Assembly (NCBI GenBank): GCA_030648835.1
Contig: JAUSGT010000002.1
Coordinates: 309,458 to 373,457, forward strand
Source of the DNA: Candidatus Moraniibacteriota bacterium
GTDB taxonomy: Bacteria; Patescibacteriota; Minisyncoccia; Moranbacterales; UBA1568
Length of the DNA: 64,000 bases
Direction of reading: 5' to 3'
In this document: positions 6,619-64,000 of the stretch, piece by piece
Position numbering within the stretch: position 1 is the first letter of the stretch
How the letters are laid out: every line of letters begins with the position of its first letter
Position numbers and translations under genes: made by a program
Notes under the pieces: model-generated
Database searches by the model: none
What the model saw: only the letters and a program-made list of their open reading frames with translations
What the model was told of the DNA's origin: nothing

Positions 6619-6695
6619 TCCACCATTTATTTTCTTGACAAGCTTTTAAGGCAGATGTATTATTCACTATGTAAGTAGGGTAAACTGTATTATTA

Positions 6696-6718: not shown

Positions 6719-6736
6719 CTGTAAACACAAAAGCAT

Positions 6737-43075: not shown

Positions 43076-43123
43076 CATCAAGCATTTAGTATCGAGAGAG
43101 ACCCGAGAGCCTCGAGTTAATGT

Positions 43124-43834: not shown

Positions 43835-43848
43835 AAATATTGATAAGT

Positions 43849-44823: not shown

Positions 44824-44897
44824 ATCTGGTCCGAGAGCCTCGAAATGAGCAATAAAAAAAACAGCAGTTTTTACCGCTGTTTTTTTATTGTTTAATT

Positions 44898-46247: not shown

Positions 46248-46363
46248 AGGTTTGTTCTTTACCCAATGAATGACGCAGACCGATGAACTAGTCCAGACCC
46301 CTCAAAAAGCCCTCAAACTGCCTATAATTTCACATTTTTGACAGAATGGAAGTGCACAAACAA

Positions 46364-47830: not shown

Positions 47831-48221
47831 AAGATTGTGTCGTTATTTGATTTACTGAAGATAATCGCAGTGCTTCGCGAACGATCTCTTCCTGCTCTGG
47901 AGTAAGCACATCCTGAGACTGAATGTTGGCCGTTACTTCTACGCGCTCACGGAATTTCTGATGTCGGTGCCGGAGCCAGAAGCTGATCGCTTGATAACTC
48001 TTATCTCTGATAAGCGAAATGAGCTGAGATTCAGACATGTCGTTGATAAGCGCCTCGCCTTCGCTCAAAGCTTCTTCGAGTGATTGGCGAAACTTCTCGT
48101 CCTCATCTCGCCAGCGGTAGACGGAAGAACGCGCGACACCGACCTTTTCGCACGCCACCTGGATAATGGGAATCTTGCGGAGTTGCTCGAGAAATAAAAT
48201 CTTGGCTCGATCCTTTTTCAT
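47751..48221 (-). CDS. Terminase small subunit-like HTH protein
   Basis: N-terminal HTH VGVARSSVYRWRDE; immediately upstream of and overlapping terL. Confidence 0.5.
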   Translation of the reverse strand: MKKDRAKILFLEQLRKIPIIQVACEKVGVARSSVYRWRDEDEKFRQSLEEALSEGEALINDMSESQLISLIRDKSYQAISFWLRHRHQKFRERVEVTANIQSQDVLTPEQEEIVREALRLSSVNQITTQSYEQQKDNNPGVSGGDDQGSKSQSGNH

Positions 48222-49549
48222 AAGATTTTTTTCGGCTTTAATCCGGTTAATTTCGACCAGCGATTCAGAATCACCTCAGCGTAGATGGGGCTTTTTTCCA
48301 TCAGAAAACACTTGCGCTGCATTTTCACCGCTGCAATCAAAGTCGAACCGCTTCCACCATAGGGCTCAAAGATGAGATCGCCTCGCTTGGTCAGTATCTT
48401 GATGTAGGGAATAAGTATTTCCAGAGGTTTCGTGCCGAAAATAATTCCCTGTCCGGAAGATTTTTCATCGGCAGCGATATGCTCAATAAAATCAGTTGGG
48501 CAATACTTCTTGCCTTTGCCATAAGATTCCCAGTGGGGACTGCCCGAGGTTGCGAAAAGCGCCGTTTCGTATTCGGTTTGAAGCAATGCATCCGATTCTG
48601 GTTCAACGTTCAGCTCAACCTTGCCCGAAGTGCCGACCATTGCGAAGTCATGCTTATTGAAGAATTTATATTTGGCGCTAAATCCTTGAACGCGATTGGG
48701 GATATGCCAAATAATTGTATTTCTGTATTTCCAATGTTTTTCTAACTCATTCCAGATAGTCCGAAGATTTTTTGGATTCTCATAGACGATGATCGAAAAG
48801 TCTGGCTCCTGAATCTTGGCGACATTGTTCATCCAGAGTTCGGTAAAGTTGTCCGGGAGTGTTTCAGTGCCTAGATACACTCGATCGCGTTTTAACCCGA
48901 AGCCTTTGGTTACATTGCCGTTTTTCTTTTTCTTACCCTTGAGGTAATCCAGAAGATACGGAGGGTCCGTGAAGCACATATGCGCCTTATGTCCGTCAAA
49001 AAGTGTTAGAACATTTGCTTCAATTGTGGAATCCCCAATCATTACTCTGCTACCGTTTAGGTCGTATACTTCGCCGCTCTTTACTTTGATTTTTGTTATG
49101 TCTAACTTCGCCAGTTCTTTCTCTAAATCAAATACTTCTGGCGTTTCATCAATTCCAAAAATTTCGTCCATTTCTTCGCTCGAGAACCCAACGCTCCCGA
49201 GGAACTGTTCGCTGAAGTTGGAAAGAATATCCCAATCGAACTCGCCGGTGTTTTTATTCAGGCGAATATTCAGTTCCTTTTCTTTTTCCAAATCAGGAAT
49301 AGAAATGTATACCACTGGTACCTCTTTGATGCCGAGCTTCTTGGCCATAGCCAGGCGGAAGTGGCCACCGATGAGAATGTTCATTCGTTCCGATGCCGAA
49401 TTTACTACGAACGGGTCGACCAACCCGAATCGTTTGATACTTTCCTGAAGCTGGGTTTCTGCCTCCTTGCTCCATTTGCGCGGATTATATTCTGACGCCT
49501 TGAGGAGCGTGACGTCGACGTACTGCACCTGCAATTTTTCTTTTGGCAT
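48218..49549 (-). CDS. ParB-like nuclease domain fused to N4/N6 DNA methyltransferase (phage-type orphan MTase)
   Basis: N-terminal ParB/Srx motif (YNPRKWS...GGHFRL), MTase motif IV TDPPY and motif I FEPYGGSGST. Confidence 0.8.
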   Translation of the reverse strand: MPKEKLQVQYVDVTLLKASEYNPRKWSKEAETQLQESIKRFGLVDPFVVNSASERMNILIGGHFRLAMAKKLGIKEVPVVYISIPDLEKEKELNIRLNKNTGEFDWDILSNFSEQFLGSVGFSSEEMDEIFGIDETPEVFDLEKELAKLDITKIKVKSGEVYDLNGSRVMIGDSTIEANVLTLFDGHKAHMCFTDPPYLLDYLKGKKKKNGNVTKGFGLKRDRVYLGTETLPDNFTELWMNNVAKIQEPDFSIIVYENPKNLRTIWNELEKHWKYRNTIIWHIPNRVQGFSAKYKFFNKHDFAMVGTSGKVELNVEPESDALLQTEYETALFATSGSPHWESYGKGKKYCPTDFIEHIAADEKSSGQGIIFGTKPLEILIPYIKILTKRGDLIFEPYGGSGSTLIAAVKMQRKCFLMEKSPIYAEVILNRWSKLTGLKPKKIL

Positions 49550-49708
49550 AATGTTTGCCTTAATGTTTATCAGGCACTCCTGCCTGTCAGGCTATATGCT
49601 GAAATTTCAGCCACTAAGAAACCTTTGCTTTATATGAAGCAATAAAATATTTTGCATAAAGAAAAAAGCCCGCTGTAATTTCAGTGGGCTACTAATAATC
49701 AGATTGGG

Positions 49709-50686
49709 TTAGTATGAATCTTCGTTTGGCTGAGGGTCTTCTTTGAATCCTTTCTTTTTCCGGGTAATAAACGTTTCCCCGCTACCCCTTAGACCAACGG
49801 GTGGTATAAGGATAAATCTAGAATGATAGTATCCATATTCTGAATAATTGAAAAACGGTTCTTCGTCTATACCGAATACCTGCCTCAGATGCTTTGATAG
49901 TATACTCTTAGTCGCATGAAGAGCATCCTTTTGTTTGAAATGTTCGTTACCAAGTAAATTATTTACCGTTGGTTGCTCACCTTTCCCCAGCTTAAAAGCC
50001 GAGAGTAAAAGGAGGAGAGTCCAGGCTTTGTTCGGAGTTTTATCTTTAGTGTTTGTTTTTACAAACCGAAGAACTTCTCGATCGAAACGACCGATAAATT
50101 TTTTCCCACATCGGATTTCTACCTCAATGTCGCTGGTAAATGCGAAGGTGATGTCTTCCCATCGGGTACCTGATGGCAATGTTACTATGGCTGTTCCTGA
50201 AAGGAGTTTTTGTGCTCTCTCCTTTGCTCGTTCCTCGACTTTCTCAAGAACTCTATTGGTTATAGTCTCAACGAGATCATCCTGGTGTAGGACTACTTCT
50301 CGCGTCTGTGGTCTTATCGGTCGAGTGGCGATAACTTCCGTTGGGATGTTGGGGACAAAGCGATTCCAAGAATCAACTATCTGACTGACGGATAGTACGA
50401 TCCGCTCCCGTTCTTTTTGAGCCCTTTGGATTTGTTCCTGCAGGTTGCCAAAGACTTCAAATGCATGTCTGTAGGTTTCGACAGCATAGTTCATCTGTTT
50501 TGCTAGGTTTTGCAAAGCCCCCGCTTGTTGCTGGAAGAACTGGTGGAGCAGAACCCGTTGTCTGAGAAACGGCTCTATATTGAAGGCAATCTCTTTTTGG
50601 ATGGCTAAAACATTAAACATAGGCACTAAGGCCATTTGTTGTGTGCTTTTTCCTTTTGGATTGGACGCTTTACTTTTGACTTTCAT
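49709..50686 (-). CDS. Hypothetical protein
   Basis: 325-aa ORF divergent from defence operon. Confidence 0.4.
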   Translation of the reverse strand: MKVKSKASNPKGKSTQQMALVPMFNVLAIQKEIAFNIEPFLRQRVLLHQFFQQQAGALQNLAKQMNYAVETYRHAFEVFGNLQEQIQRAQKERERIVLSVSQIVDSWNRFVPNIPTEVIATRPIRPQTREVVLHQDDLVETITNRVLEKVEERAKERAQKLLSGTAIVTLPSGTRWEDITFAFTSDIEVEIRCGKKFIGRFDREVLRFVKTNTKDKTPNKAWTLLLLLSAFKLGKGEQPTVNNLLGNEHFKQKDALHATKSILSKHLRQVFGIDEEPFFNYSEYGYYHSRFILIPPVGLRGSGETFITRKKKGFKEDPQPNEDSY

Positions 50687-50715
50687 AGTTGTAAACTAAT
50701 AGTAACTCATATCTT

Positions 50716-50916
50716 ATGAAGAATCAAACGAAGAAAATCGAGGAATACCCGGAGATTTTGACGCTCCAGGAAGCTTGTGAGGTTTTGAATTGCCACCCAA
50801 ATACGCTTCGGAATTGGGATAACAAAGGCATCCTCAAGGCAATTCGGTTTGGCACGAGGAAGGACAGAAGGTACAAAAAGGAGGATGTGTTGAAAGTTAT
50901 CAATAAAGGCCACTAA
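50716..50916 (+). CDS. Excisionase/MerR-family HTH DNA-binding protein (possible controller or Xis)
   Basis: 66 aa; LTLQEACEVLNCHPNTLRNWDNKGIL HTH; 3 nt upstream of the SNF2 gene. Confidence 0.6.
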   Translation: MKNQTKKIEEYPEILTLQEACEVLNCHPNTLRNWDNKGILKAIRFGTRKDRRYKKEDVLKVINKGH

Positions 50917-50919
50917 AGT

Positions 50920-53862
50920 ATGGCGAAAATTACTTCCTATCATGCAAAATATTTTGCCCACGAGCTAACTAAGCGGTGTTCTTCGGATAGCTTAGAAAAA
51001 CTATCCTCAACACTTTCTAACGCTCAAGTTGATCTGAACCCTCATCAGATTGAGGCGGCACTTTTTGCATTTAAATCGCCGCTTTCTAAGGGAGCAATTC
51101 TGGCTGACGAAGTTGGTTTAGGGAAAACAATTGAAGCCGGCTTGGTGCTGTCTCAAAAATGGGCGGAACGAAAAAGAAAGATTTTATTAATAGTGCCGTC
51201 TAGTCTTAGAAAGCAGTGGAACTCAGAACTTCGAGAAAAGTTTTTTTTGCCATCAATAATTTTAGAAGCAAAATCTTTTAATCAAACTGTCAAAGAAGGT
51301 AATCTCAACCCTTTTAATCAGGATAACGCAATTATCATTTGTTCTTATCACTTCGCTAGAGCCAAATCATCCTATATCAAACAAACCCCTTTTGATTTAG
51401 TGGTTATTGATGAAGCACATCGTCTGCGTAATGTTTATAAAACGAGTAGTAAAATTGCCCGAGAAATAAAAGATGCCATTCAAGAATATCCTAAGCTACT
51501 TCTCACTGCCACTCCTTTGCAAAATTCTTTACTCGAGCTATACGGATTAACCAGTATTATTGACGACCATATTTTTGGGGATCTCAGTAGTTTTAAGGCG
51601 AATTATGCCAAAGTTTCACGAGAGCAGGATATTTACGAAAACGAGCTTGGTTTAGTTGAGCCGAGACAAGAAATGTTTGCTGATTTGCGTAATAGACTAA
51701 AGCCAATTTGTATTCGTACACTGCGTCGCCAGGTTTTGGAATATATTAATTATCGCGATCGCAAACCAATCACTCAGGACTATGTACCGACTGAGCAAGA
51801 AATTGAACTTTATGATGGGATGACTGAGTATCTTCAACGCCCACGTCTTTATGCTTTGCCGTTTAGCCAGCGTCAGCTTATGACGCTTATTTTACGCAAA
51901 CTTTTAGCCTCGTCATCATTTGCTATTGCCAGTACGCTCAATGGATTGGTCTATAAGTTAGAAAAATTGGAAGAAGAAATAAGAAAAAAATCAGCGGTGT
52001 TAGACGAAACACTTCCTTTAGGGATTGAAGAAAATTATGAGGCTTTTGAAACTACAGCTGATGAATGGATTGACGATGAGGAAGAAGAGATTGATGACAA
52101 GATAAAAGAAAAGAAAAAGTATACACTCGAAGATATTCCTTTGATTCAATCAGAAAAAACAGACCTAGAAAAATTTAGAGACTTAGCAAGAGCCATTTTC
52201 AAAAATTCCAAAGGAGAATCCTTGCTCATTGCTTTAGAAAAAGGTTTCGAAATGACTGCAACGCTTGGTGCTCAGAAAAAAGCAGTTATTTTTACAGAAT
52301 CAAGAATCACTCAGGATTATCTCTGGAAACTACTTTCGGATAGTGGTTACAAAGACAAAATGCTCTTATTCAATGGTTCTAATAATGATCAAAAGTCAAA
52401 AGATATTTATGCTGAATGGTTGAAGAAAAATAAAGACACTGACAACATAACAGACTCGAAGACCGCAGACCTTCGTGCCGCACTGGTGGACTACTTCAAG
52501 TCGGATGCCGAGATTATGATTGCTACTGAAGCGGCTGCTGAAGGCATCAACCTACAATTCTGTTCACTTGTTATCAACTATGATCTCCCATGGAATCCTC
52601 AAAGAATTGAGCAGAGAATTGGCCGTTGTCATCGTTATGGACAAAAACATGATGTAGTTGTGGTCAACTTTGTAAATCGAAAAAACGCTGCTGATCAGCG
52701 CGTTTATGAACTGCTTGATCAAAAGTTCAAACTTTTCAAAGGCGTTTTTGGGGTAAGCGATGAAGTGCTTGGTAGTATTGAGTCAGGGGTTGATTTTGAA
52801 AAACGTATTGCAGCTATTTACCAATCCTGTCGCACCGAGGAGGAAATCAACAATGCTTTTGACACCTTACAGACAGAAATGGACGATTCGATTCAGGAAG
52901 GCATGCGCGGAGCGAAAGAAAAACTTCTGGAAAATTTTGACGCGGATGTACATGAAAAACTCAAGATAAATTTGCGTGAGAGCAAGGGATATTTAGAAAC
53001 TTATGAAAAGTGGCTCTGGGATATCTCTCAGTACTTTCTAGGTGACAAAGCGGTTTATGCTGAAGATGAATATTCTTTTACACTTAAACGCAATCCATTT
53101 CCTGATGAAGATATTGATGAAGGTCCTTATAAAATTGGTAAAAATATTGATGATGCTCACATTTACCGTCCAGGACATCCTCTGGCTGAGAGAATTTTGC
53201 GTGAGGTAAAAGCACAGTCGTTATCAAGCGCTGAAATAGTTTTTGATTATTCCAATCACGGAAATATTATTTCTCCAATTAAAGAGTTGGTTGGTACTAG
53301 CGGTATTTTACAAGTATCAGAATTGACTATTGACTCGTTTGAAACCGAAGACAATATTCTGGTGACAGCAATAAAAAACAATAGCGAAGTAATTGAAGAA
53401 GATGTCGCAAAAAAACTTTTCTTACTCAGTGCTGAGGTGAAGGGAGATACTATCAAAACAGTAAGCGAAGAGGTTCAACAAAGAGAGCAGGAAAAGGTAA
53501 ATATTCTTACTGCAAGCATTGCCGGACGTAACAGCGAATTTTTTGATGATGAGGTAGACAAGCTTGATAAGTGGGCTGAAGATGTGAAAAAGAGTATGGA
53601 AATAGAACTCAAGCGTATGGATATTGATATTAAAACAATGAAAACGAACGCCAAAAAAGTCTTGAATTTAGGAGAAAAGGTAAAACTTCAACGAGAAATA
53701 AAGGATTTAGAAAAGAAACGAAACGATATGCGTCAGAAACTTTATAAGGCACAAGACGAAGTAGATGTGAAGAAAGAGAATTTACTGGAGAAAGTAGAAG
53801 CACAGCTGAAACAAAAAATGACGCTTGCACCATTATTTACAATACGATTTAAGGTGATATAA
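50920..53862 (+). CDS. SNF2-family helicase/ATPase with about 380-aa C-terminal coiled-coil extension
   Basis: Motif I DEVGLGKTIEAG, II DEAHRLRN, III LLLTATPLQNSLLELY, VI NPQRIEQRIGRCHRYGQ. Confidence 0.85.
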   Translation: MAKITSYHAKYFAHELTKRCSSDSLEKLSSTLSNAQVDLNPHQIEAALFAFKSPLSKGAILADEVGLGKTIEAGLVLSQKWAERKRKILLIVPSSLRKQWNSELREKFFLPSIILEAKSFNQTVKEGNLNPFNQDNAIIICSYHFARAKSSYIKQTPFDLVVIDEAHRLRNVYKTSSKIAREIKDAIQEYPKLLLTATPLQNSLLELYGLTSIIDDHIFGDLSSFKANYAKVSREQDIYENELGLVEPRQEMFADLRNRLKPICIRTLRRQVLEYINYRDRKPITQDYVPTEQEIELYDGMTEYLQRPRLYALPFSQRQLMTLILRKLLASSSFAIASTLNGLVYKLEKLEEEIRKKSAVLDETLPLGIEENYEAFETTADEWIDDEEEEIDDKIKEKKKYTLEDIPLIQSEKTDLEKFRDLARAIFKNSKGESLLIALEKGFEMTATLGAQKKAVIFTESRITQDYLWKLLSDSGYKDKMLLFNGSNNDQKSKDIYAEWLKKNKDTDNITDSKTADLRAALVDYFKSDAEIMIATEAAAEGINLQFCSLVINYDLPWNPQRIEQRIGRCHRYGQKHDVVVVNFVNRKNAADQRVYELLDQKFKLFKGVFGVSDEVLGSIESGVDFEKRIAAIYQSCRTEEEINNAFDTLQTEMDDSIQEGMRGAKEKLLENFDADVHEKLKINLRESKGYLETYEKWLWDISQYFLGDKAVYAEDEYSFTLKRNPFPDEDIDEGPYKIGKNIDDAHIYRPGHPLAERILREVKAQSLSSAEIVFDYSNHGNIISPIKELVGTSGILQVSELTIDSFETEDNILVTAIKNNSEVIEEDVAKKLFLLSAEVKGDTIKTVSEEVQQREQEKVNILTASIAGRNSEFFDDEVDKLDKWAEDVKKSMEIELKRMDIDIKTMKTNAKKVLNLGEKVKLQREIKDLEKKRNDMRQKLYKAQDEVDVKKENLLEKVEAQLKQKMTLAPLFTIRFKVI

Positions 53863-53866
53863 AAAT

Positions 53867-55570
53867 ATGAGCAATAACAAACAAAAACTAGAGCTCACGT
53901 GGATCGGGAAAAATAACCCCGAGTATGATATCTCCAACATTGAACCGCGCATCTTGGAAGAGCGGACTGATTTGTCATATGGTGATAAGGAGAGTGAGAA
54001 CATGATCATCCATGGTGACAACCTCCTCGCACTCAAGGCGCTTCTACCTGAATATGAGGGCAAAATAAAATGTATCTATATTGACCCACCATACAATACA
54101 GGTAATGCCTTTGAACATTACGACGATAGCGTGGAACACTCAACATGGCTCTCACTAATGAAGCCGCGGTTGGAACTTTTAAGAATGCTATTGAGTGAAG
54201 ATGGTGTTATTTTTATTCAAATAGACAATTCGGAGCAAGCGTATTTGAAAGTTCTATTAGACGAGGTTTTCCAAAGAAACAACTTTATTACGTCGTTTAT
54301 TCTTAAAGTTAGACATTCGGAACGAATGCTAAAAGGAGATAAAGATATTCATGATGTTGCTGAATACGTGCACTGTTATCAAAAATCAAATCAATTTAAA
54401 ATCTCAAAGAGAAAACAGGTAGTCGCAGATGATCCATACGAAGATTATCAGTGGGCAGTAAAAACAATTGGAACTGGAAAAACACTTGTATTGGGAAATA
54501 AAGAGTGCCGTGTTTTTAAGCCCGGTGAATATGAATTAACACGTTTAGACGGAAATAAAAGCGGGTTCAAAAAGATCAACATTCGTGGCGGACTAAGAGA
54601 AGGAAATAGTAGTGGTAGATTTTATGTTGCTCATATTGAACAAAGACTTCAGAATGATGGTTATAACGTTTTATACGAGGTACCTAATATTGGTGATGAT
54701 GGGACAGGACGCAGATATTTTCTTTTACCAGAAAATATGAAAAAGAAAAATGGTAATTATTTTCAGGGAGTACCACAAACACGAACTTCATCAAAAGATC
54801 TTCCATACCCATCTTTCTTCGATGTCTCTGCAGCTTTTAACCGTGTCGGCTACGAAGGAGTTGTCGAATTTCGAAATTCTAAAAAGCCGGAATCACTCAT
54901 TAAGACTTTTTTTGAAATAGCAAATTTGTCTAGCAACGATTGGATTTTAGATTCATTTCTTGGTTCTGGTACCACGGCTGCAGTAGCCCACAAAATGAAT
55001 TTTAATTATATCGGCATAGAAATGGGCAACCATGCTTATTCTCATGTCCATAAACGAATGAAAGCCGTTATTGATGGCGAGGATCATAGTGGAATCAGCG
55101 AAGCTGTGAACTGGCACGGAGGAGGAGGATTTAAATTTTATGAGCTTGCACCGAGTTTTATTGTGAAAGACGAATTTGGGAATCCTGTGATTGATAGTTT
55201 TTATAATGACGCTAAACTTATTAAAGCCATGTGTAAGCTGATGAACTTTACATATCAGCCAAGTCAAACAGAATATTGGAAGCACGGCGTGGGTCAAGGA
55301 AAGAACTATCTTTATGTTACTACTCAGCTTTTGACAAGCGGGATGATTCAGCAGATTGCAGGACATCTTACTGAGGGTGAGTCTTTGATAGTTTGTCCGA
55401 AGAAGTTTGAACCTGGTGCGGATAAAATTGATAGCCGTATTACTATTAAAAAAATACCGCAGTCGGTTCTGAAAGCTTGTCACTTTGGCAAAAAGGAATA
55501 TCTACTTCCAATCAAGGAATCCGCTCTGGAAGAGATAGAGGATGAATCACTAGAAGATGATAACGAATAA
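53867..55570 (+). CDS. N6-adenine DNA methyltransferase, beta-class (type III Mod-like)
   Basis: Motif IV IYIDPPYNTGN precedes motif I DSFLGSGTTAAVA; EHSTWLSLMKPRLELL region typical of Mod; 4 nt after SNF2 stop. Confidence 0.85.
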   Translation: MSNNKQKLELTWIGKNNPEYDISNIEPRILEERTDLSYGDKESENMIIHGDNLLALKALLPEYEGKIKCIYIDPPYNTGNAFEHYDDSVEHSTWLSLMKPRLELLRMLLSEDGVIFIQIDNSEQAYLKVLLDEVFQRNNFITSFILKVRHSERMLKGDKDIHDVAEYVHCYQKSNQFKISKRKQVVADDPYEDYQWAVKTIGTGKTLVLGNKECRVFKPGEYELTRLDGNKSGFKKINIRGGLREGNSSGRFYVAHIEQRLQNDGYNVLYEVPNIGDDGTGRRYFLLPENMKKKNGNYFQGVPQTRTSSKDLPYPSFFDVSAAFNRVGYEGVVEFRNSKKPESLIKTFFEIANLSSNDWILDSFLGSGTTAAVAHKMNFNYIGIEMGNHAYSHVHKRMKAVIDGEDHSGISEAVNWHGGGGFKFYELAPSFIVKDEFGNPVIDSFYNDAKLIKAMCKLMNFTYQPSQTEYWKHGVGQGKNYLYVTTQLLTSGMIQQIAGHLTEGESLIVCPKKFEPGADKIDSRITIKKIPQSVLKACHFGKKEYLLPIKESALEEIEDESLEDDNE

Positions 55571-55575
55571 ATACT

Positions 55576-58401
55576 ATGAGACCTGAGGAAGCGCTCAAAT
55601 ACCTCAATGGCGCGATGAGTTTGCACGCTCCGCAAGTAAAGAGTCTGGAGCTTTTTGCTCATTATTTGCAGTCACCAGCTGGGCAAAAATTGTTGTTACG
55701 CATGAAAAAAGAAGTGCGTGGCAATACAGCTGAGATATTAGCAGAAAGCAAAGCATACTTCAGTACTGTTCCCGAAGCACGCGAGTTTGAGGAATATGAA
55801 AGAGCGTTCCCGGCTTACACCTTTGCACTCGCTACCGGCGTAGGCAAAACCAGGTTGATGGGTGCTTTCGTAGCATATTTGTATTTGGTATATAATATTC
55901 AGCACTTTTTGATTGTTGCACCAAACCTGACTATTTATCGCAAGCTCTATGATGATTTTAGTAAGGCAAATAATCCTAAGTATGTTTTTAAGGGTATTCA
56001 AGAAGTAAATACAAATACGGTAAAAGTCATTACCACAGAAAATTACGCTAACTATAGACAGCAATCACTCTTTCTTAATCAGATTGAAATCAATATTTTT
56101 AATATCCAACAGTTCGCACAGAGGGATATGACCAGTGAGCGCGGTATTACGAAAGCGTGGGAAACCGCTGGGGAGTCCTATTTTGACTATTTAAAAGCGC
56201 ATGATGATTTAGTGGTGATGTTAGATGAAGCCCACCACTACCATGCGGATGCGGCCCTTGGCGCACTCGATTTGATGGATCCTCTATTTGGACTAGAAAT
56301 GACTGCTACACCATACCTTGGGACTCAAGGTACGGGCAGAAATGCAAGACAAATCAGAATGAAAAATGTTTTGTATTCCTATAACCTTGGTGATGCTATC
56401 CGAGGCAAGCTTGTCAAAGATCCATGGATAGGCACTGAAGCAGATGTGGATTTCAGTCAATTTGATCCTGACTCTATTGATACTGACGCGCGCAAATTGC
56501 AACTGGCGGCTTTTTTTCACGAACGTGCTAAAAATGCACTGAAGGAGTATGCGTTGGAAAATAATAAGCCGATTGTAAAACCGGTTATGTTGGTGGTAGC
56601 AAAAGACACAACACACGCAGGAGAGTTACGCGCTTTGATTGATAGCGATAATTTTCGTGGTGGAGAATTTAAGGGAAAGGTTATTGAGATACACACTAAA
56701 CTTCGTGGAGATGAGGCAGATGAAAATATTGATAAATTAATTTCACTTGAACACCCCGATAATCCAGTGGAGATTGTGATTCACGTCAATATGCTCAAGG
56801 AAGGTTGGGATGTGACAAATGTGTATACCATTGCGCCTTTGCGTGAGGCAGCTGCCGCGATTTTGACCGAGCAGACAATCGGGCGTGGTTTACGCTTACC
56901 TTACGGAGAACGCACCGGCATACCTTTGGTAGACAGACTGGTGCTCGTTGCTCACGAACAGTTTGCTAAAGTTGTGGCACTTGCTAAAGACTCACCACTT
57001 ATTCAAGGACAGGTTGAACAAATTTCAGAGAGAGAAGCTAAAGAAGTTAAAGTGTTCACCGAAGTTCAGTCCGTTGCTCTTGATGCCGTTAAAGATGCAA
57101 TAACGCAAAATGAAGTGGTGATGCAAGAGGTTGAAAAACAAGTTGAAGAAGAGATTGCTAAAATGCCGCAAGCAGATTTAATGGATGAATCAGTAAAAGG
57201 AAAAATGAAAGAAACCAAGACAGATGAAAAAGTAACTGGCTTATCAAAAATTGTATGTGGAATTAATACATTTTCTAGTTATCACGGGCAAAAACTGAGT
57301 GTTTCACCAGAGCTGTCCTTTGGAACTGATACATTGTTTGGATTTTTCAGTGATGAAGCAAAAGGTGAGCTCTCAAGGATTGCAAAAAAATCTGGAGAGG
57401 CAATGGAAGAAAGAAATATACCAATTCCGCGTTTGATGCTTACCCCGCACTTTGGTGAACTTTTGATAGAACAATTTGATTTGGATACGAGTGTATTACG
57501 TACATATACTAATGAGCGAGCTATTCTTGAAGAACAATTACAAAATGATCGTGAGAAAAATTTATTTGATGAAGAAGTTCCAGGACGTCGAATGACTGAA
57601 GTAACAAGAATAAGCAGTTTTGGTGCGCATACGAGACAGACTCCACAAAGCACTATAATTGCTTCGCTTCTTGATTTTCCGTTGGTTGATTATGATGATC
57701 CTTCGCAAAAACCATTGCTTCTGAGATTAGCAGAGCAAGCTGTCATACATTATCGAGAAAAGGCGATTGATGAAGATAATCTTGCCCTGATTGTTGAAAG
57801 TAACGCGCGTACAATTGCCGAAGATATTTATCAGCAGATTTTGACACATAAAGAATTGAAGTCTGAGGGATATCTTGAGTCCGATGTGCGTGAACCGAAA
57901 CCATATTTGGAACAGTATAATATTTCCTTGTTGTTTGGAGAAAAACCTGTTTCTCTTGAATCACAGCTAAATACTTTTAGTGCCAAACTTGTCTATGGAC
58001 AGTTTCAAAAGGCCTGCCACTCAATGTATCGTTTTGATTCTTCAGATGAAGTACGTCTAGCGTATTTATTAGATCGTGAAGATTCAGTTGAAGATTGGTT
58101 ACGCCCAGCCCCTAATCAATTTGAGGGCTTGTATTGGCGTGATATAGAAGGAGAGTCTCATCATCGCTACGAACCAGATTTTGTTGTTGAATTTGAAAAT
58201 GAGATAGTAATGATAGAAGTGAAGCCGGAATTAGAAATCCAAGCTCTAAGCGTACAGGCAAAAAAACAAACCGCAGAAAAATACTGTGAGGTAGTGAATA
58301 AAAATATTGGAAAGTTTGGTATCATAAAGCCATGGCGGTATGTGATTGTTCCCACAGAAAAAATAACAATAAGTTCTACGATAGATGGATTGTTGAGTTG
58401 A
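55576..58401 (+). CDS. Type III restriction Res-like subunit: DEAH helicase + C-terminal PD-(D/E)xK nuclease
   Basis: Walker A ATGVGKT, motif II VVMLDEAHHY, III EMTATPY, VI QTIGRGLRLPYG; C-terminal EPDFVVEFENEIVMIEVKPE. Confidence 0.8.
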   Translation: MRPEEALKYLNGAMSLHAPQVKSLELFAHYLQSPAGQKLLLRMKKEVRGNTAEILAESKAYFSTVPEAREFEEYERAFPAYTFALATGVGKTRLMGAFVAYLYLVYNIQHFLIVAPNLTIYRKLYDDFSKANNPKYVFKGIQEVNTNTVKVITTENYANYRQQSLFLNQIEINIFNIQQFAQRDMTSERGITKAWETAGESYFDYLKAHDDLVVMLDEAHHYHADAALGALDLMDPLFGLEMTATPYLGTQGTGRNARQIRMKNVLYSYNLGDAIRGKLVKDPWIGTEADVDFSQFDPDSIDTDARKLQLAAFFHERAKNALKEYALENNKPIVKPVMLVVAKDTTHAGELRALIDSDNFRGGEFKGKVIEIHTKLRGDEADENIDKLISLEHPDNPVEIVIHVNMLKEGWDVTNVYTIAPLREAAAAILTEQTIGRGLRLPYGERTGIPLVDRLVLVAHEQFAKVVALAKDSPLIQGQVEQISEREAKEVKVFTEVQSVALDAVKDAITQNEVVMQEVEKQVEEEIAKMPQADLMDESVKGKMKETKTDEKVTGLSKIVCGINTFSSYHGQKLSVSPELSFGTDTLFGFFSDEAKGELSRIAKKSGEAMEERNIPIPRLMLTPHFGELLIEQFDLDTSVLRTYTNERAILEEQLQNDREKNLFDEEVPGRRMTEVTRISSFGAHTRQTPQSTIIASLLDFPLVDYDDPSQKPLLLRLAEQAVIHYREKAIDEDNLALIVESNARTIAEDIYQQILTHKELKSEGYLESDVREPKPYLEQYNISLLFGEKPVSLESQLNTFSAKLVYGQFQKACHSMYRFDSSDEVRLAYLLDREDSVEDWLRPAPNQFEGLYWRDIEGESHHRYEPDFVVEFENEIVMIEVKPELEIQALSVQAKKQTAEKYCEVVNKNIGKFGIIKPWRYVIVPTEKITISSTIDGLLS

Positions 58402-58467: not shown

Positions 58468-58830
58468 ATGGAAATTGATGATAAAAAAATTGGACAAATA
58501 CTTGGAAATTTAGAATCTGCGATTGGAAAAATTATTAGAATAGATATGTGGTTGCCTGAAGCTATAGATTATGCTATAAATGGCCATCGTGGAACTTTGG
58601 ATCGAGCGGATATTGATAGAGCGACCAGGGAGAAAAAGGAGGATAATAAAATTCAAATAGAAATTGACAGTTTGCGTAGTCAAGTTGAAGAATCACAAAA
58701 ACAAACCCAAGAAATAAAGAAGCAGACGCGCTACTTATTGTATGCATTCATTATCGCTATTTTTAGTTTTTCATTAAATGCCATTTTGCAAATAAGCCCG
58801 AATCTGTTTGGCCTACTAAATACAAAATAA
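58468..58830 (+). CDS. Hypothetical coiled-coil protein with C-terminal TM helix
   Basis: 120-aa ORF in AT-rich defence block. Confidence 0.35.
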   Translation: MEIDDKKIGQILGNLESAIGKIIRIDMWLPEAIDYAINGHRGTLDRADIDRATREKKEDNKIQIEIDSLRSQVEESQKQTQEIKKQTRYLLYAFIIAIFSFSLNAILQISPNLFGLLNTK

Positions 58831-58913
58831 AGAAGATGCCAACTTGTTTATAAACTCTACGATCTCACCCCAGAAGAAATTGAAATTATAGAAAATTCAA
58901 GTAAGAAATAATC

Positions 58914-59516
58914 ATGCTTTCACTTGATCAAAAAGAGATAGAAGCCAAGCTGGATACATTTAATTGGAATTTTAAAGTTGGGGATAATATAAAACACAAC
59001 ATTGAAGAAGTGTTTTTCTTGTACAAAATAAAAGAAGAAAATTGTTCATATACTAGGGAAAAACAATTTATAAATAAACATATATCAATAACCCTAGTTG
59101 CTATTATTGAAGGAATTTTACACGACTTTGTTGTAAGACTAAGCGAAGCCACAAACCACTTTCCGTTAATCATTGATGATAAGAAAAAGAAGGATATCAA
59201 AAAATATATTTCAGAGCAAAAAGTACCTTTTAAGTATAAAAAACTTGAGGGTAGAATACTCAGAGTCAAAAACTATTCATTCGCTCAGATTCTCAAGTTG
59301 CTTCAAAACTTCGAGCTGTTAGAGTCAAAAAATAGCCCAATCTACAATACGTTAGAGGCCGCCACTCATTTTAGAAATCGCATCCATATTTATAATTGGT
59401 TTAATAACTTTGAGACCGACGAGAGGGATGTTTTTACGGATAAACGGTTAGAAGTTCTCGAGTGGTTAGTTATTTACATCTTAACTACAATGGAGGCCAA
59501 GTACTCACGGCCTTGA
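58914..59516 (+). CDS. Hypothetical protein with HEPN-like R-N-x-I-H motif (paralog of 59766-60389)
   Basis: TLEAATHFRNRIHIYNW aligns with EIAEEIRIARNKIHVSG of the next protein. Confidence 0.4.
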   Translation: MLSLDQKEIEAKLDTFNWNFKVGDNIKHNIEEVFFLYKIKEENCSYTREKQFINKHISITLVAIIEGILHDFVVRLSEATNHFPLIIDDKKKKDIKKYISEQKVPFKYKKLEGRILRVKNYSFAQILKLLQNFELLESKNSPIYNTLEAATHFRNRIHIYNWFNNFETDERDVFTDKRLEVLEWLVIYILTTMEAKYSRP

Positions 59517-59765
59517 GAAGAGGGTTGTGAGGGAGTATCTGTTCAAAGAAGGTTTGTGGATTATGAATTTGGACTAGCAACCTAGTGGAATGGCGTATTT
59601 TTTGCTACAATAAAAACATGTCAAAACAGATTAGAAAAAAGAGAGAAGATACTAAGATTGGGACCATAGAAAAAAAATATGATCGTGATTTTGGTGTGCG
59701 ATCAGATAAGAAACTAGGAAACTATCTTAAGGAACAAGGGTTTCCATCGTTAAGTAAGCTTCTCG

Positions 59766-60389
59766 ATGAAACAAAGCGAGGAAAAAAGTGATGAGGTTAT
59801 TGATGAGTTGATGCCAAAAGAAACCTTTGAGAAAAGGTTCTCTTTTATTACAAACGATACTCTAAAAAAGAATATCGCGATTGCTTTTGAATATATTGTT
59901 TTTCTAATTGATACTGCAGGAAAGGAAAATCATAAGCAATTGATTAGAAGTTCTCTTTATAAGGATGCGACCGTTTATACAGGGACTATTGTTGAGGCCT
60001 GTCTTTGTCATGTACTTATGAAATATTTCTCAGTAAACAAATTACAAAAAACAAAAGTTTTGACTCCAGAATGGAAAGAAGAAGCACAAGGGTTTATACA
60101 CGAGTTTAGTAAAAAAAAGAGGATCCGTTATGTTATTGAGCATATAAGCTACGAAGATATTAGAGATTCATCAAACTTTATCGAAATAAATCGTGCTTGT
60201 CTTCGTGGCAGGATACTTTCTAAAAAAGAATACGAAATTGCAGAAGAAATAAGAATAGCTAGGAATAAAATTCACGTATCTGGATTAAAGGAAATAGATA
60301 ATTCATACAGCAAAGAGAAGCTTGATGAAATCTTTTCTAAAGCAAATAAAATTATTAGAAAAGTAGAAAAGAAACTTTTGAAGCTTTAG
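59766..60389 (+). CDS. Hypothetical protein with HEPN-like Rx6H motif (RIARNKIH)
   Basis: Motif as above; possibly fused by frameshift to upstream 68-aa ORF 59585-59791. Confidence 0.4.
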   Translation: MKQSEEKSDEVIDELMPKETFEKRFSFITNDTLKKNIAIAFEYIVFLIDTAGKENHKQLIRSSLYKDATVYTGTIVEACLCHVLMKYFSVNKLQKTKVLTPEWKEEAQGFIHEFSKKKRIRYVIEHISYEDIRDSSNFIEINRACLRGRILSKKEYEIAEEIRIARNKIHVSGLKEIDNSYSKEKLDEIFSKANKIIRKVEKKLLKL

Positions 60390-60673
60390 GGGGTTTTTTT
60401 TCAGAGAGTAAAAAAATAGTCAGGTACCATTTTGGTAGGAATTTTCTCAGCCCTGGTTCGTTTTTAGTGGCTTGATTTATTCTTCAAAAAGAGTAGGATA
60501 CAAGCACAACTGAATAGTGAATTATCTAGAGAGTGGCGAGAGCACTGGCTCACTGACCCACCGGCAACCCTTGGCAACAAGAAGGTGCCCCATCCAGCCC
60601 TGGAAAGGGAAAGATATCGGTCGATTCTTTCTCTGTCTCTGGACAGAGTTTTTGATTTTCTAACGATAATACT

Positions 60674-61099
60674 ATGAAAAATATCTACTATAAAGCAAAA
60701 GAAGAAGATGAGACTCCTCTCCATATGTCTGGATTTGTTCCGTTCCGTTTGGAACTTAAAAATTTCCCAAAATATGACAATTTTCCATACAATATTTTGT
60801 TCGCAGGAGATGCCAACATAGACGGAGTGGACATGTCCGGCAGTGCTCTGTATTTTCCCGATTTTTCAACGTTTCAGGAAAGTGAGAAAAAACAGTCTAT
60901 GACTTATTTTAACCAATATAGTCGCGAATGGACGGTGGTGATTGAGTATGACAAGCAAAGGGGTTCGTGGGAAGGATCAAAATATTACAAAGGTGAATTC
61001 AAAGGCGGTGGCGGTGGTACAGAGTGGAGAATGGCTTTTGCACATCTGACTATGGCTGGATTGGCGAATGGTGAAAGGGTGGAATTTGAAAAGATTTGA
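60674..61099 (+). CDS. Hypothetical protein
   Basis: 141-aa ORF; stop overlaps next start (atga). Confidence 0.35.
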   Translation: MKNIYYKAKEEDETPLHMSGFVPFRLELKNFPKYDNFPYNILFAGDANIDGVDMSGSALYFPDFSTFQESEKKQSMTYFNQYSREWTVVIEYDKQRGSWEGSKYYKGEFKGGGGGTEWRMAFAHLTMAGLANGERVEFEKI

Positions 61100-61542
61100 A
61101 AAGTTTTTTTAACGCTAAAATCATGAAAAATATGGACAACAATCAAAACAGGGAATCGCTTTCCCAGGTTAAGGTAAAAGAAGTAGCTTCGCGCTACATT
61201 AGCGGATGTGATAAGTGGTATAGAATGTATGCTGGCATTGCTTCGAATCTAGAAAGATATGAAAGCGGTATTATGTATCTGCGGATAGAAAATACCGAGA
61301 AAACAAAACCTTCAAGCTATGAAACGGCCGTTGAGTTCGCTCGCAAATGGGTGGGATACAATGCAGAATTAAAAGACGCGAAAGGGTTCGTTGTTTCGTT
61401 CTATACCAGCGGGGCGACTGGTTTTGTATTGAATGGTGCCACTGATAAAGGTATTGCTAGCGATTTGGTTCAGCAATTCATAAGGGCTTCGCAGCAAGAA
61501 AAAAAACTAGTGAATATTTTTTCTGGAGAGTTGAAAGTTTGA
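61096..61542 (+). CDS. Hypothetical protein
   Basis: 148-aa ORF translationally coupled to previous. Confidence 0.35.
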   Translation: MKSFFNAKIMKNMDNNQNRESLSQVKVKEVASRYISGCDKWYRMYAGIASNLERYESGIMYLRIENTEKTKPSSYETAVEFARKWVGYNAELKDAKGFVVSFYTSGATGFVLNGATDKGIASDLVQQFIRASQQEKKLVNIFSGELKV

Positions 61543-61589
61543 AAGAAAAGATGCAAAGCAGACAGTAATATCTTTTTTACCAAGTTCTA

Positions 61590-62930
61590 TTAGTCGAGCT
61601 CTGTTGAAAAAGTTGGTATCCCAACTCTCTTTCGACTTGTTTCACCTTTGAAGAGGTGATTTTTTCTTTCTGGTACTCTACCTCGTTCTCCTGAGTGCTG
61701 AGTAAATTGGTGTGCAAGAAAGGAAGCGCCAAAGTGAATAGTGTGTTTCCCATACTTGGCTCTTACTTCATCGATTTTTTCATAAAGTCTGCGAAAACCG
61801 TCAATTTTCAGTGAAGACCCAAACAAATCTGGCTGCAGATTCGGTTCTTGAAGTTCAATCAAGCCGATCATAGTTGCTCGATAGAGTACCCCTTTTTTAA
61901 ACAAATTATCAAACTCAGGTTTTAATAAATCAATCAGTTCATGAGCGAAGTTTGTCGGTCGAGAAAGCTTTACTTCAGTCGAATGGTGTTCGTAGTTCTG
62001 GGTGCGGAGGAGAATATATACTTTTTTGGCTTCCAGTTTATAGCCTCTCGCTTTCATGCAAGCGGATTCGATGTTCTTACAGAGCTGAGCAAAGACAAAA
62101 CGAGGATCATTGGATGGAGGAGTGAACGTCTTCATCTTCTGGATAGAATAGTGATCTGCGCGAGGCTCTATCTGTAGTGGCATGACGCTTTCTCCTCTGA
62201 GCTCTGACCAGATTTCTTGGATCGGTTTTGGAAAATATTTTTGTACCCACTCCTTATCTCTGCGGACGAAATCCAAACAGGTATGAACTCCGTATTTTTG
62301 AAGCAGTGAAGATGTTTGCGGTCCAATACCCCAGGGCTTACCAATAGGCAGATTTTCTAGATAAAGATGAATCTTTCTGTTGGGGATAGCTGTCAGGCCA
62401 TTGGGCTTATTCCATTTAGAACCAAGCTTAGCTAGTACCTTCGTAGAAGCAAGGCCGATAGAGAAGGTAAAACCAAGTTCTTTGGTCAGATCATCTTGGA
62501 GCTTCTCTGCAATCTTCGTATAGCTCATGTGAAACGGCCTCTGCCAGCCTGTTAGGTCGGCAAAGCACTCGTCTATCCCATATTCTTCTACGTCTGGCGT
62601 ATAACGCCTCACAATATCAAAGAAACGTTTGGAAAGAAGGGAATAAGTCTCATAGTCAGAAGGGAGAATAATAGCTTCAGGGCAGAGCTTTTTAATCTCA
62701 GAGAGTCTCATGGCTCTCGTTACTCCCTTGGCTTTAGCTTCGTAGCTCATGGAAGCGGCGATGCCTCGTTCTTTGCCGGTGATGACTGGCTTACCTCGCA
62801 GTTCTGGGTTTCTGGCTTGTTCACAAGAGGCAAAGAAAGCATCTCCGTCGATATGGAGGATGGCGCGGGGAAACTTACCAAGAGCAATAGGGGCAGACAT
62901 ACTAGTACTTTCTGATGATAGCTGTGACAA
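61590..62930 (-). CDS. Y-family DNA polymerase (DinB/UmuC-like)
   Basis: ILHIDGDAFFASCE and GIDECFADLTG catalytic motifs. Confidence 0.85.
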   Translation of the reverse strand: MSQLSSESTSMSAPIALGKFPRAILHIDGDAFFASCEQARNPELRGKPVITGKERGIAASMSYEAKAKGVTRAMRLSEIKKLCPEAIILPSDYETYSLLSKRFFDIVRRYTPDVEEYGIDECFADLTGWQRPFHMSYTKIAEKLQDDLTKELGFTFSIGLASTKVLAKLGSKWNKPNGLTAIPNRKIHLYLENLPIGKPWGIGPQTSSLLQKYGVHTCLDFVRRDKEWVQKYFPKPIQEIWSELRGESVMPLQIEPRADHYSIQKMKTFTPPSNDPRFVFAQLCKNIESACMKARGYKLEAKKVYILLRTQNYEHHSTEVKLSRPTNFAHELIDLLKPEFDNLFKKGVLYRATMIGLIELQEPNLQPDLFGSSLKIDGFRRLYEKIDEVRAKYGKHTIHFGASFLAHQFTQHSGERGRVPERKNHLFKGETSRKRVGIPTFSTELD

Positions 62931-63477
62931 TAGCCTCTATTCGCAATTCTTCTTTGGGATAGATAGTAGGAAACTTCGGATTGGCTGGCACCAAGACAAT
63001 TTTTTTACCGGGAAGAATATGGTAATATTTCATCGTCCATTTTCCATCGACACAGGCAATGACAATGTCACCATGTTTTGGTTGTTTTCCTCGTTCTACA
63101 AGAGCAGTGTCTCCGGGACGAATACCAGCATTGATCATTGATTGGCCCTTCACTTCGAGCATATAGGTGGCTTCCCGTCTTTGGATAAGCCATTCATCAA
63201 GAGTCATGGTATCTAGGAGCTCTTCTTCAGCCGGGGAAGGAAAACCAGCTTCAACAAAACCAAGCTTCTTTACGCTGGTGAAAAGGTTAGTAGGAGTTAA
63301 CTTTCCTTTTTTGTCTCGTCTCAAAACACCTTCATCCACGAGAGCGTCTACGAGCTCTTTTGTTTTCCTCATGGATTTTGTACGAATTATTCTATCTCTA
63401 ATTTCTCGTACTGATGGCATACGCTTGTTATCCTCGTAAAATGCCTGAATTTTTTGATAGAGTATAATAGAATCCAT
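62902..63477 (-). CDS. LexA-like repressor paralog (HTH + S24 peptidase), co-operonic with Y-family polymerase
   Basis: MPSVREIRDRI HTH similar to chromosomal lexA; GQSM Ser and MKYY Lys; overlaps polymerase gene start. Confidence 0.75.
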   Translation of the reverse strand: MDSIILYQKIQAFYEDNKRMPSVREIRDRIIRTKSMRKTKELVDALVDEGVLRRDKKGKLTPTNLFTSVKKLGFVEAGFPSPAEEELLDTMTLDEWLIQRREATYMLEVKGQSMINAGIRPGDTALVERGKQPKHGDIVIACVDGKWTMKYYHILPGKKIVLVPANPKFPTIYPKEELRIEAIVTAIIRKY

Positions 63478-63516
63478 AGGTATAAAGGGGCGTTAATAGT
63501 ACGATATACACTATAT

Positions 63517-63532
63517 GGGAACAAACGTTCCC
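63517..63532. promoter_or_regulatory. Cheo-type SOS box GGGAACAAACGTTCCC upstream of the lexA-like/polymerase operon
   Basis: Perfect GAAC-N4-GTTC palindrome 40 bp upstream of the lexA-like start. Confidence 0.6.
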
Positions 63533-63603
63533 AAGTCAAGTAAAATAACCATATGTGCGGACGTTATCTAAAAAGAGTATGCTTTGTGTAATATAAGAAA
63601 TCT

Positions 63604-64000
63604 ATGATTGCCACGATTGATATAAAAAGCAGACCATTGAAACTTGCCTTTTTGGTAGACCCTAAAAAGCAAAGAGAAATTTTAACTGCTATAGAACTTA
63701 GTTGTTCTTTATGGGGTGGTGCTTTTAACCCTATAATTCCTTTCTATACAAGTGTTCCAGAAAATTGGGATAAAATGCCTTACTCTAAAAAAAGAAAAGA
63801 AAAGCCTAGCAATATAGTTAATGGGTATATTAAAACTTTTGATCCGGACGTATTGGTGATTTGTAGCGATAGAGCTCTTCCTAAAGAAGTAGATACTTTT
63901 GGGCTTCGTGTGATCAAATCCGATGAATTATGGAAAAGTTTTTTGAGTAACGGAGAAGGTCAGCCTGATTATGGAATAGGGATTTTTGAAATCCTAAATG
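63604..64000 (+). CDS. Hypothetical protein, 5' part only (runs off window)
   Basis: Open frame from ATG at 63604 to window end in AT-rich DNA. Confidence 0.3.
   Translation, partial: MIATIDIKSRPLKLAFLVDPKKQREILTAIELSCSLWGGAFNPIIPFYTSVPENWDKMPYSKKRKEKPSNIVNGYIKTFDPDVLVICSDRALPKEVDTFGLRVIKSDELWKSFLSNGEGQPDYGIGIFEILN

Follow-up and report, generated by a model that had tools for sequence, protein, structure and literature searches.

We examined a 64,000-nucleotide stretch of the metagenome-assembled genome of a Candidatus Moraniibacteriota bacterium (assembly GCA_030648835.1, contig JAUSGT010000002.1, positions 309,458 to 373,457 of the forward strand), referred to here as the window, and focused on a two-gene cassette on its reverse strand. 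The first gene of the cassette (62902–63477, minus strand; 191 amino acids plus stop) was classified from family, structure and alignment evidence as encoding a putative autoproteolytic repressor that is UmuD-like and has LexA architecture. The second (61590–62900, minus strand; 436 amino acids plus stop) was assigned from Pfam and NCBIfam matches and an alignment of homologues as a Y-family DNA polymerase gene. A single base separates the repressor stop codon (TAG, 62902–62904) from the polymerase start codon (ATG, 62898–62900), and the genes are tightly, or translationally, coupled without overlapping. An earlier reading of the locus from its letters alone (the sequence-only reading) had the two genes overlap. 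Their adjacency holds, but an overlap needs the mechanical TTG start at 62930, whereas all homologues align from the methionine at 62900. At least 531 genomes encode a relative, and we took 80 related loci from species-representative genomes; box counts given below refer to 75 loci that encode a full-length (long-form) protein. In nearly all of the 80 loci a Y-family polymerase lies directly downstream of the S24 peptidase gene, and both the polymerase and a box in the promoter are conserved, which bears out the proposal of a two-gene cassette with its own regulatory logic. In three loci, genes encoding 124, 272 and 139 amino acids are inserted between the two (L016:3549–3923, L043:3570–4388 and L078:3549–3968, respectively). 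A conserved third cassette gene was considered and rejected, as these intervening genes share no obvious mutual similarity; the gene junction appears to tolerate cargo insertions.

The N-terminal part of the 191-residue protein resembles the DNA-binding domain of LexA. Pfam placed a Peptidase_S24 domain at residues 73–184 and detected no helix–turn–helix (HTH) domain (PF01726) in this protein; that domain is precomputed for the homologues P0108 and P0117. Comparison with a canonical LexA alignment by hhalign gave 99.2% over residues 3–189, and the AlphaFold2 model has helices at residues 3–17, 23–31 and 36–48 and a β-hairpin, with predicted local distance difference test (pLDDT) values of 84–89, followed by a β-rich domain; the linker was modelled at low confidence. 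The top Foldseek matches over the full length were the LexA structures 3k2z (Thermotoga) and 3jso (the E. coli LexA–DNA complex), and template modelling (TM) scores to UmuD and UmuD′ were 0.83–0.88. The model and these comparisons argue for an N-terminal LexA-type winged HTH, at approximately residues 1–62 (63292–63477, minus strand).

For the C-terminal domain, the best sequence match among solved structures is E. coli UmuD (1.5e-17), in an alignment that sets UmuD C24-G25 against A77-G78 of the cassette protein (63244–63249, minus strand) and in which UmuD′ starts at the residue aligned with G78. The S24 domain carries the UmuD-type cleavage-site motif (GFPSPA), and the best annotated plasmid matches of the protein are umuD, at approximately 40% identity. 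A77, G78, Ser113 (63139–63141) and Lys150 (63028–63030) are invariant in 22 homologues, in agreement with the sequence-only reading, which had described the Ser/Lys dyad as intact. Among the NCBIfam models, UmuD (PRK10276) scored 109.3 bits against a cutoff of 110 over 114 residues, 0.7 bit short, and lexA (TIGR00498) scored 97.4 bits against a cutoff of 110.95, aligned over residues 8–190. The cassette protein is thus below both curated cutoffs, whereas the other LexA of this genome, at 115.1 bits, is above the LexA one. Unlike the short tail of UmuD, a 76-residue N-terminal region with the winged HTH precedes the cleavage site. NCBI annotates a protein 100% identical to the 191-residue product as 'S24 family peptidase'. 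On this sequence evidence the C-terminal domain is of the UmuD type. The protein had previously been called a LexA paralogue with an HTH and an S24 domain; the LexA architecture stands, but it is more than a plain LexA paralogue, given the type of its C-terminal domain and the existence of HTH-less versions that are approximately 80% identical. The two domains also differ in conservation. Across the cassette family, conservation was 0.66 in the C-terminal and 0.39 in the N-terminal part (0.81 and 0.56 within the Moranbacteria clade), whereas both domains of canonical LexA are equally conserved (0.80 and 0.81). These values suggest that the C-terminal domain has an extra role beyond regulation.

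In the polymerase, Pfam detected IMS (162 bits) and IMS_C, and the acidic catalytic residues D18, D20, D110 and E111 are conserved. The best NCBIfam models were those of DinB, at 216 bits (cutoffs 256–399), and UmuC scored 138 bits (cutoff 431). The core is therefore DinB-like, as it is by solved-structure scores, in a protein that is an equivalog of no named subfamily; its best plasmid matches are approximately 30% identical. By the curated cutoffs, the cassette genes are equivalogs of none of LexA, UmuD, DinB and UmuC. The polymerase has an internal clamp-type motif, QPDLF, at residues 356–360 (61821–61835), kept as Q.dLF across 66 orthologues, and a RecA-NT-like motif at approximately residues 372–392 (61725–61787), in which kyGKHt..lgsS is kept across 66 polymerases. 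The same number of polymerases share a conserved C-terminal tail, qH.g.Rg..p.R...l.kGEt.R.rlgiP, and there is a weak DUF4113 match (E 0.0074). The combination of clamp motif, RecA-NT-like motif and C-terminal tail has been tied to RecA-binding, Pol V-like enzymes that also bind an accessory subunit (PMC6511836). By its sequence motifs, the cassette polymerase thus has Pol V-like features.

A promoter scan of positions 61300–63800 gave TTGACT-N18-TATAGT as the best sigma-70-like promoter (10 of 12 matches), with the −35 hexamer TTGACT at 63534–63539 and the −10 hexamer TATAGT, supported also by homologous promoters, at 63510–63515, both on the minus strand. The 18-nucleotide spacer between them is occupied by a 16-bp palindrome, the candidate operator GGGAAC-N4-GTTCCC (63517–63532, no strand assigned; GGGAACAAACGTTCCC, coding strand GGGAACGTTTGTTCCC), whose GAAC-N4-GTTC core lies at 63519–63530. 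It stands where the sequence-only reading had placed a box, 39 nucleotides before the repressor ATG. A single box is by itself without significance: GAAC-N4-GTTC occurs twice in the window against 1.03 expected, 26 of 100 shuffles gave two or more, and the other copy, at 17073, falls within an open reading frame (ORF) listed at 16660–17226. The box gains its significance because it is conserved across homologous loci. G[AT]AC-N4-GT[AT]C was found no more than 230 nucleotides upstream in 60 of the 75 long-form loci but in only 12 of 1,783 control windows from the same loci (0.7%), so that the check proposed in the sequence-only reading, conservation upstream of homologous cassettes, came out clearly in favour of the box. 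In most of the remaining long-form loci, promoter and box lie at −208 to −348. A 6-N4-6 palindrome between TTGACA-like and TATAAT-like hexamers was seen in 68 loci (for example, TTGACAGGTGAACATTTGTTCACTATACT). Six loci (L008, L010, L016, L025, L051 and L080), with promoter and box 208–348 nucleotides upstream of the start codon, have long leaders.

In the Moranbacteria clade each long-form locus has a single GGGAAC-N4-GTTCCC, without exception at the cassette promoter. Neither the rest of the window nor, away from cassette promoters, the 127 fetched loci yielded another copy; this looks like a regulon confined to the cassette and not like a second SOS regulon. The earlier designation of a 'perfect Cheo-type SOS box' is correct for the GAAC-N4-GTTC core. 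The flanks are GGG/CCC rather than the C/G of Cheo boxes (CGAAC...GTTCG), and no further copy in a promoter position, as recurrence upstream of several SOS genes would require, was seen in the window or the loci.

Comparison of sequences points to the cassette's own protein as the likely binder of the box, because the half-site tracks the recognition helix, the box decays with loss of the HTH, canonical lexA promoters lack the box and the box is private to the cassette. Read by eye, the half-site variants GTGAAC, GGGAAC, TAGAAC, GCGTAC, GTGTAC and GTGTCC are each paired with a distinct recognition-helix sequence. GTGAAC goes with the helix KS[KT]NAV.KLV, GGGAAC (the Moranbacteria clade, including the window) with SM[RK]Q, GCGTAC with SKG[TS]T and GTGTCC with RTAAR, and TAGAAC goes with an aromatic residue where other helices have lysine. 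Loci labelled Actinomycetota have a GCGTAC-N4-GTACGC operator, not one of the GAAC type. Among 29 distinct upstream regions of canonical Moranbacteria lexA genes, also read by eye, we found no GAAC-type box.

Close relatives of the cassette encode HTH-less proteins of approximately 130 amino acids, in which the cleavage site comes approximately 15 residues after the start. These short forms, approximately 80% identical, have retained the cleavage site, and the orthologous polymerases paired with them are 81–82% identical to that of the window. The spacers of their promoters contain at most a decayed box (for example, GGGACTCATATTTCCC or GAGACTGTTTTTCTC). A neighbour-joining tree of the polymerases, with bootstrap values from a fast distance method, shows the short forms as monophyletic (100%) and nested in the long-form Moranbacteria clade, with the polymerase of the window as their sister (84%) and a next node of 92%. 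The tree is most simply read as a long-form ancestor losing its HTH once, after which the remaining domain would still have had a job with the polymerase. Because the HTH-less versions retain both the cleavage site and the polymerase partner, the C-terminal domain presumably functions without DNA binding. In three of five short-form promoters TGAAA-N5-TAAAAC, a motif of the type found at canonical lexA genes (see below), lies approximately 20 nucleotides before the start codon, and the other two have it with one mismatch, whereas no canonical-type motif was found in long-form cassette promoters. Once the private repressor domain was lost, the host LexA seems to have taken over control. The short-form loci L116–L122 (for example, L116:1242–4702) have a conserved neighbourhood with a divergent PIF1-like helicase, and with a YdjM-family protein, Fic and SAICAR synthase nearby; they look like a small chromosomal SOS locus under a canonical-type operator.

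The canonical chromosomal lexA of this genome (6737–7387, plus strand; 216 amino acids) is supported by its TIGR00498 score of 115.1 bits and by Pfam LexA_DNA_bind and S24 matches, and NCBI annotates an identical protein as 'transcriptional repressor LexA'. The protein is 73–100% identical across Moranbacteria, with housekeeping neighbours. We fetched 35 loci with orthologues of this LexA, of which 28 distinct promoters entered the motif count. TG[TA]AA-N4-5-[GTA]TAAA directly follows the −10 hexamer in 22 of the 28, compared with 0.4% of 80-nucleotide windows. In the window the motif is unique: it lies at 6670–6685 (plus strand; TGTAAGTAGGGTAAAC), a direct-repeat-like candidate operator of the form TGTAA-N5-GTAAAC, directly downstream of a TTGACA-17-TATTAT promoter at 6635–6663. 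A passage of PMC7739468 cites a Patescibacteria study (Sanchez-Osuna et al. 2017) for LexA recognizing a direct-repeat motif, and TGTAA-N5-GTAAAC would fit the motif as cited there. The 2017 Patescibacteria paper may already describe parts of the cassette.

The sequence-only reading had noted a different palindrome before the chromosomal lexA, CGATATGTA-N5-TACATATCG. It is indeed present, at 6696–6718 (plus strand), but its being the conserved operator is unsupported: it occurs only in the window and in L084–86, and the conserved element is TGTAA-N5-GTAAAC. The palindrome lies inside a lineage-specific insertion of approximately 41 bp (6686–6726) that also holds a second TGTATTAT and a second GTAAAC. 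This insertion is missing from L081, the LexA of which is 99% identical, and recurs only in L084–86, which represent one other distinct lexA promoter and in which the arms of the palindrome show a compensatory change from GTA/TAC to GCA/TGC. As RNA, the palindrome forms a hairpin of modest stability (−12.6 kcal/mol, z −1.9), and the insertion, which lies in the lexA leader, might provide either an additional operator or a leader hairpin.

That two LexA-type proteins are tied to different operators, as had been suggested, is borne out as an association, with different conserved elements at the two genes. We found no evidence of the cross-talk between them that the same reading allowed for, and no canonical-type motif at the cassette promoter. 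The ACGATAT(G/A) segment that it described as shared is literally present in both upstream regions, but its strand relative to the gene is not the same in the two cases and homologous promoters of either gene lack it, and we rejected it as a cross-talk site; by our estimate, a shared 7-mer between two regions of approximately 130 nucleotides is expected by chance. The two circuits look orthogonal, because the canonical-type motif is absent from long-form cassette promoters and present at short-form ones. Nor is the two-LexA arrangement unique to the genome of the window: in another Moraniibacteriota metagenome-assembled genome (MAG) both are present among purine-synthesis genes, the long-form cassette 7 kb from the canonical lexA. 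One further site, TGTAATATAAGAAATC at 63587–63602, immediately precedes the start codon (ATG, 63604) of a divergent ORFan of 804 amino acids, which has no Pfam or PADLOC match; ahead of the site stands a −10-like hexamer, TATGCT. The site agrees with the motif of canonical lexA genes at 14 of 16 positions and, with approximately 15 two-mismatch sites expected per window, is not significant alone.

Together, we consider it probable that the cassette is a self-contained, damage-inducible translesion-synthesis module that is repressed by its own product and orthogonal to the host LexA; as a less certain part of this reading, the C-terminal fragment of the repressor might also be a partner of the polymerase. 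The 191-residue protein would combine a winged HTH, an Ala-Gly cleavage site and an S24 peptidase domain with a Ser/Lys dyad. Its dimer, to judge from the comparison of loci, would bind the 16-bp GGGAAC-N4-GTTCCC in the promoter spacer and block RNA polymerase, because the palindrome fills the space between −35 and −10. Upon DNA damage, RecA filaments would trigger self-cleavage at A77-G78, as the conserved catalytic and cleavage residues suggest, and cleavage would part the HTH from the dimerizing C-terminal domain and derepress both genes. The 114-residue cleavage product might then act as a UmuD′-like accessory subunit of the co-transcribed polymerase; we propose this because the C-terminal domain is of the UmuD type and persists with orthologous polymerases after HTH loss, and regard it as close to an even call, leaning slightly against. 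Throughout, regulation of the cassette would be orthogonal to canonical LexA, itself tied to a different, direct-repeat-like operator. A stronger version, in which the protein is a bifunctional LexA/UmuD, repressor before damage and polymerase subunit after it, and in which the HTH-less sub-clade preserves a conversion to plain UmuD with hand-over of the operator, is possible, although we would bet modestly against it.

Several points weigh against this interpretation. DNA binding, cleavage and partnership with the polymerase are all things that we infer. The covariation of operator and helix was judged by eye, without statistics, and is confounded by shared ancestry; the box scan covered 64 kb, whereas the contig is 635 kb or longer, and further boxes may lie elsewhere in the genome; and some MAG taxonomic labels look unreliable, such as a 'Bdellovibrionales' label, probably wrong, on a sequence 75% identical to Moranbacteria. 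The catalytic core scores as DinB-like over UmuC (216 against 138 bits, both under cutoff), and DinB enzymes generally function without a UmuD′ subunit. The closest characterized analogue, UmuDAb, represses error-prone polymerase genes and is a repressor only, which did not supply UmuD function (PMC4807011). The last two points would be accommodated if the cassette protein were likewise a repressor only, a LexA-like autorepressor of a DinB-type operon that uses its C-terminal domain for dimerization and RecA-dependent cleavage and leaves the polymerase to work alone. The operator evidence fits such a protein equally well, and the DinB-like core, by NCBIfam and by solved-structure scores, is what it would predict. 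We nonetheless think it unlikely, since HTH-less versions approximately 80% identical keep the cleavage site and polymerase partner, conservation is far higher in the C-terminal than in the N-terminal domain, which is not so in canonical LexA, and the polymerase bears a RecA-NT-like motif and a conserved C-terminal tail.

The remaining alternatives concern the reach of the operator and the identity of its binder. GAAC-N4-GTTC is the operator type of Gram-positive LexA regulons, and our scan covered approximately 10% of the contig; the cassette protein might then be a second global SOS regulator with such boxes before other damage-inducible genes. This seems improbable given that the only other GAAC-N4-GTTC of the window is intragenic and that GGGAAC-N4-GTTCCC is restricted to cassette promoters in the 127 loci. 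A fast-diverging N-terminal domain and operator would also suit a one-target regulator, whereas a regulator of many sites is expected to diverge more slowly. According to a passage of PMC8565304, umuDC-type operons are repressed by the host LexA in many bacteria, and by analogy the box could be the operator of the canonical 216-residue LexA, with a cassette N-terminal region that does not bind DNA. We regard host control of this kind as very improbable, since none of the 29 distinct canonical lexA upstream regions has a GAAC-type box and 22 of 28 carry TGTAA-N5-GTAAAC instead. Moreover, the box decays exactly where the cassette HTH is lost and those promoters gain a canonical-type motif, the half-site changes with the cassette's own helix, and the N-terminal domain of the cassette protein is homologous to the LexA DNA-binding domain.

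The genomic surroundings of the cassette bear on its mobility. The first 43 kb of the window are housekeeping in character (ValRS, TsaD, RecG and nine tRNA genes), with a GC content of approximately 48%; after the tRNA-Ser gene (42985–43076) it is 34–44%. An integrated element at 42985–58401 contains genes for a large serine recombinase (44898–46247), a terminase-like protein (46364–47830) and a ParB-N6/N4 methylase (48218–49549). A DrmD-like SNF2 helicase gene (50920–53862; 678 bits, PADLOC DrmD) is joined into a type III restriction–modification operon with a methyltransferase gene (53867–55570) and a restriction endonuclease gene (55576–58401), the latter with a TnsA-like C-terminal nuclease match. 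Between these restriction–modification genes and the cassette runs a series of small low-GC ORFans (58468–61542), one of which (59766–60389) has a weak Swt1-like HEPN match (E 0.004); they may be further defence or toxin–antitoxin genes. As repeats of attachment (att) sites, we found only a 36-nucleotide imperfect direct repeat near the tRNA gene (43103 and 44831). The island continues past the edge of the window, and an overlapping contig of 10.8 kb, which contributes only the 804-residue ORFan and two further genes, stops short of its far boundary. 'Island-borne', the term used in the sequence-only reading, is thus fair for the genome of the window, because the region is low in GC, adjacent to a tRNA gene and bears a recombinase, but residence in an island is not intrinsic to the cassette, the relatives of which have ordinary chromosomal surroundings. 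Many Patescibacteria classes contain the cassette, which is also found on large contigs with the labels Nitrospirales (2.09 Mb), Syntrophorhabdus, Terriglobia and Actinomycetes, and its neighbours vary even within Moranbacteria. These distributions fit horizontal spread of the cassette, because its occurrence is scattered, its neighbours vary and its regulation appears self-contained. Carriage by phages or plasmids was rejected: IMG/VR held no relatives, and phage and plasmid collections gave only distant UmuD-type matches. No close long-form relative was found in those collections, the best matches being approximately 30–41% identical, mostly annotated as umuD and mainly to the C-terminal domain.

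To a specialist on the SOS response the cassette itself will be unsurprising. What is informative is the private, co-varying operator, the two apparently orthogonal LexA-type circuits in a genome of the candidate phyla radiation (CPR; Patescibacteria), and the disappearance of the HTH in a nested sub-clade, apparently accompanied by a hand-over of the operator. Error-prone polymerases need to be silenced until they are required, and the cassette appears to bring its own switch. Such a switch would work in any host, whatever the specificity of its LexA, which would explain the patchy spread in Patescibacteria, Nitrospirota, Actinomycetota and other phyla. Even very small CPR genomes can, it seems, keep two orthogonal LexA-type circuits. 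The natural series of matched helix and operator variants should be useful for studying the evolution of LexA-type specificity and as a source of orthogonal damage-inducible switches. If the C-terminal fragment does serve the polymerase, one protein would couple transcriptional and post-translational control of mutagenesis, and the HTH-less sub-clade would document how UmuD can arise from a LexA-like ancestor. If the bifunctional reading is true, the cassette family would be a living intermediate for the relationship between LexA and UmuD.

Among known systems, the Gram-positive LexA with its Cheo box shares with the cassette the arrangement of domains, the residues for cleavage and catalysis, autoregulation and the GAAC-N4-GTTC core. 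Unlike a Gram-positive LexA, the cassette protein is under the NCBIfam LexA cutoff and its C-terminal domain resembles UmuD more closely than it does any solved LexA; unlike the Cheo box, its site has GGG/CCC flanks, is apparently single and private rather than regulon-wide, and varies by clade (GTAC and GTCC cores). The Pol V operons umuDC, mucAB and rumAB likewise have an S24 autoprotease gene upstream of a Y-family polymerase, with an aligned cleavage site, and their polymerases share the internal clamp motif, RecA-NT-like motif and C-terminal tail. However, UmuD has no DNA-binding domain and is repressed via the host LexA, whereas the cassette protein carries its own HTH, and the cassette polymerase, with its DinB-like core, is no UmuC equivalog (138 bits against the cutoff of 431). 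HdiR of Streptococcaceae and the COG2932 regulators of Bacteroidetes are, like the cassette protein, non-canonical S24 repressors of small, translesion-centred SOS-like networks, but their HTH is phage-CI-like (PMC8565304), whereas the cassette DNA-binding domain is homologous to the LexA winged HTH.

UmuDAb of Acinetobacter (PMC4807011, PMC11332147) also joins a UmuD-type S24 domain to an N-terminal LexA-like HTH and, as proposed for the cassette protein, is an autoproteolytic repressor whose dedicated targets are error-prone polymerase genes and not a broad SOS regulon. The two differ in that UmuDAb replaces a missing LexA whereas the cassette coexists with a canonical one, and in that the UmuDAb gene stands alone, divergent from ddrR, whereas the cassette repressor gene shares a transcript with the polymerase gene. 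UmuDAb depends on the corepressor DdrR, and its operator, with a critical 5-bp core, is unusually large (PMC11332147); the cassette operator is a simple 6-N4-6 palindrome between the promoter hexamers. Experiments showed that UmuDAb does not act as UmuD, whereas for the cassette protein an accessory role is proposed. No ddrR was found as the divergent neighbour, which is the 804-residue ORFan without family match, and no search for ddrR was made elsewhere in the genome; with no divergent ddrR and another operator type, the cassette is not a member of the UmuDAb system. In the lexA2-imuA-imuB-dnaE2 cassettes, an extra autoregulated lexA accompanies an error-prone polymerase module and has its own operator. 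The Geobacter lexA-imuB-C-polY operon, as outlined in a passage of PMC6511836 that cites Jara 2003, similarly has an extra autoregulated lexA co-transcribed with an error-prone polymerase module. Both kinds of operon thus share with the cassette an extra autoregulated copy of lexA, its own operator and a co-transcribed polymerase module, whereas the cassette is without imuB-C, imuA and dnaE2, has a C-terminal domain of the UmuD type, and has its operator within the promoter spacer. By analogy, the cassette would work like UmuDAb and resembles the autoregulated Geobacter and lexA2-imuA-imuB-dnaE2 operons.

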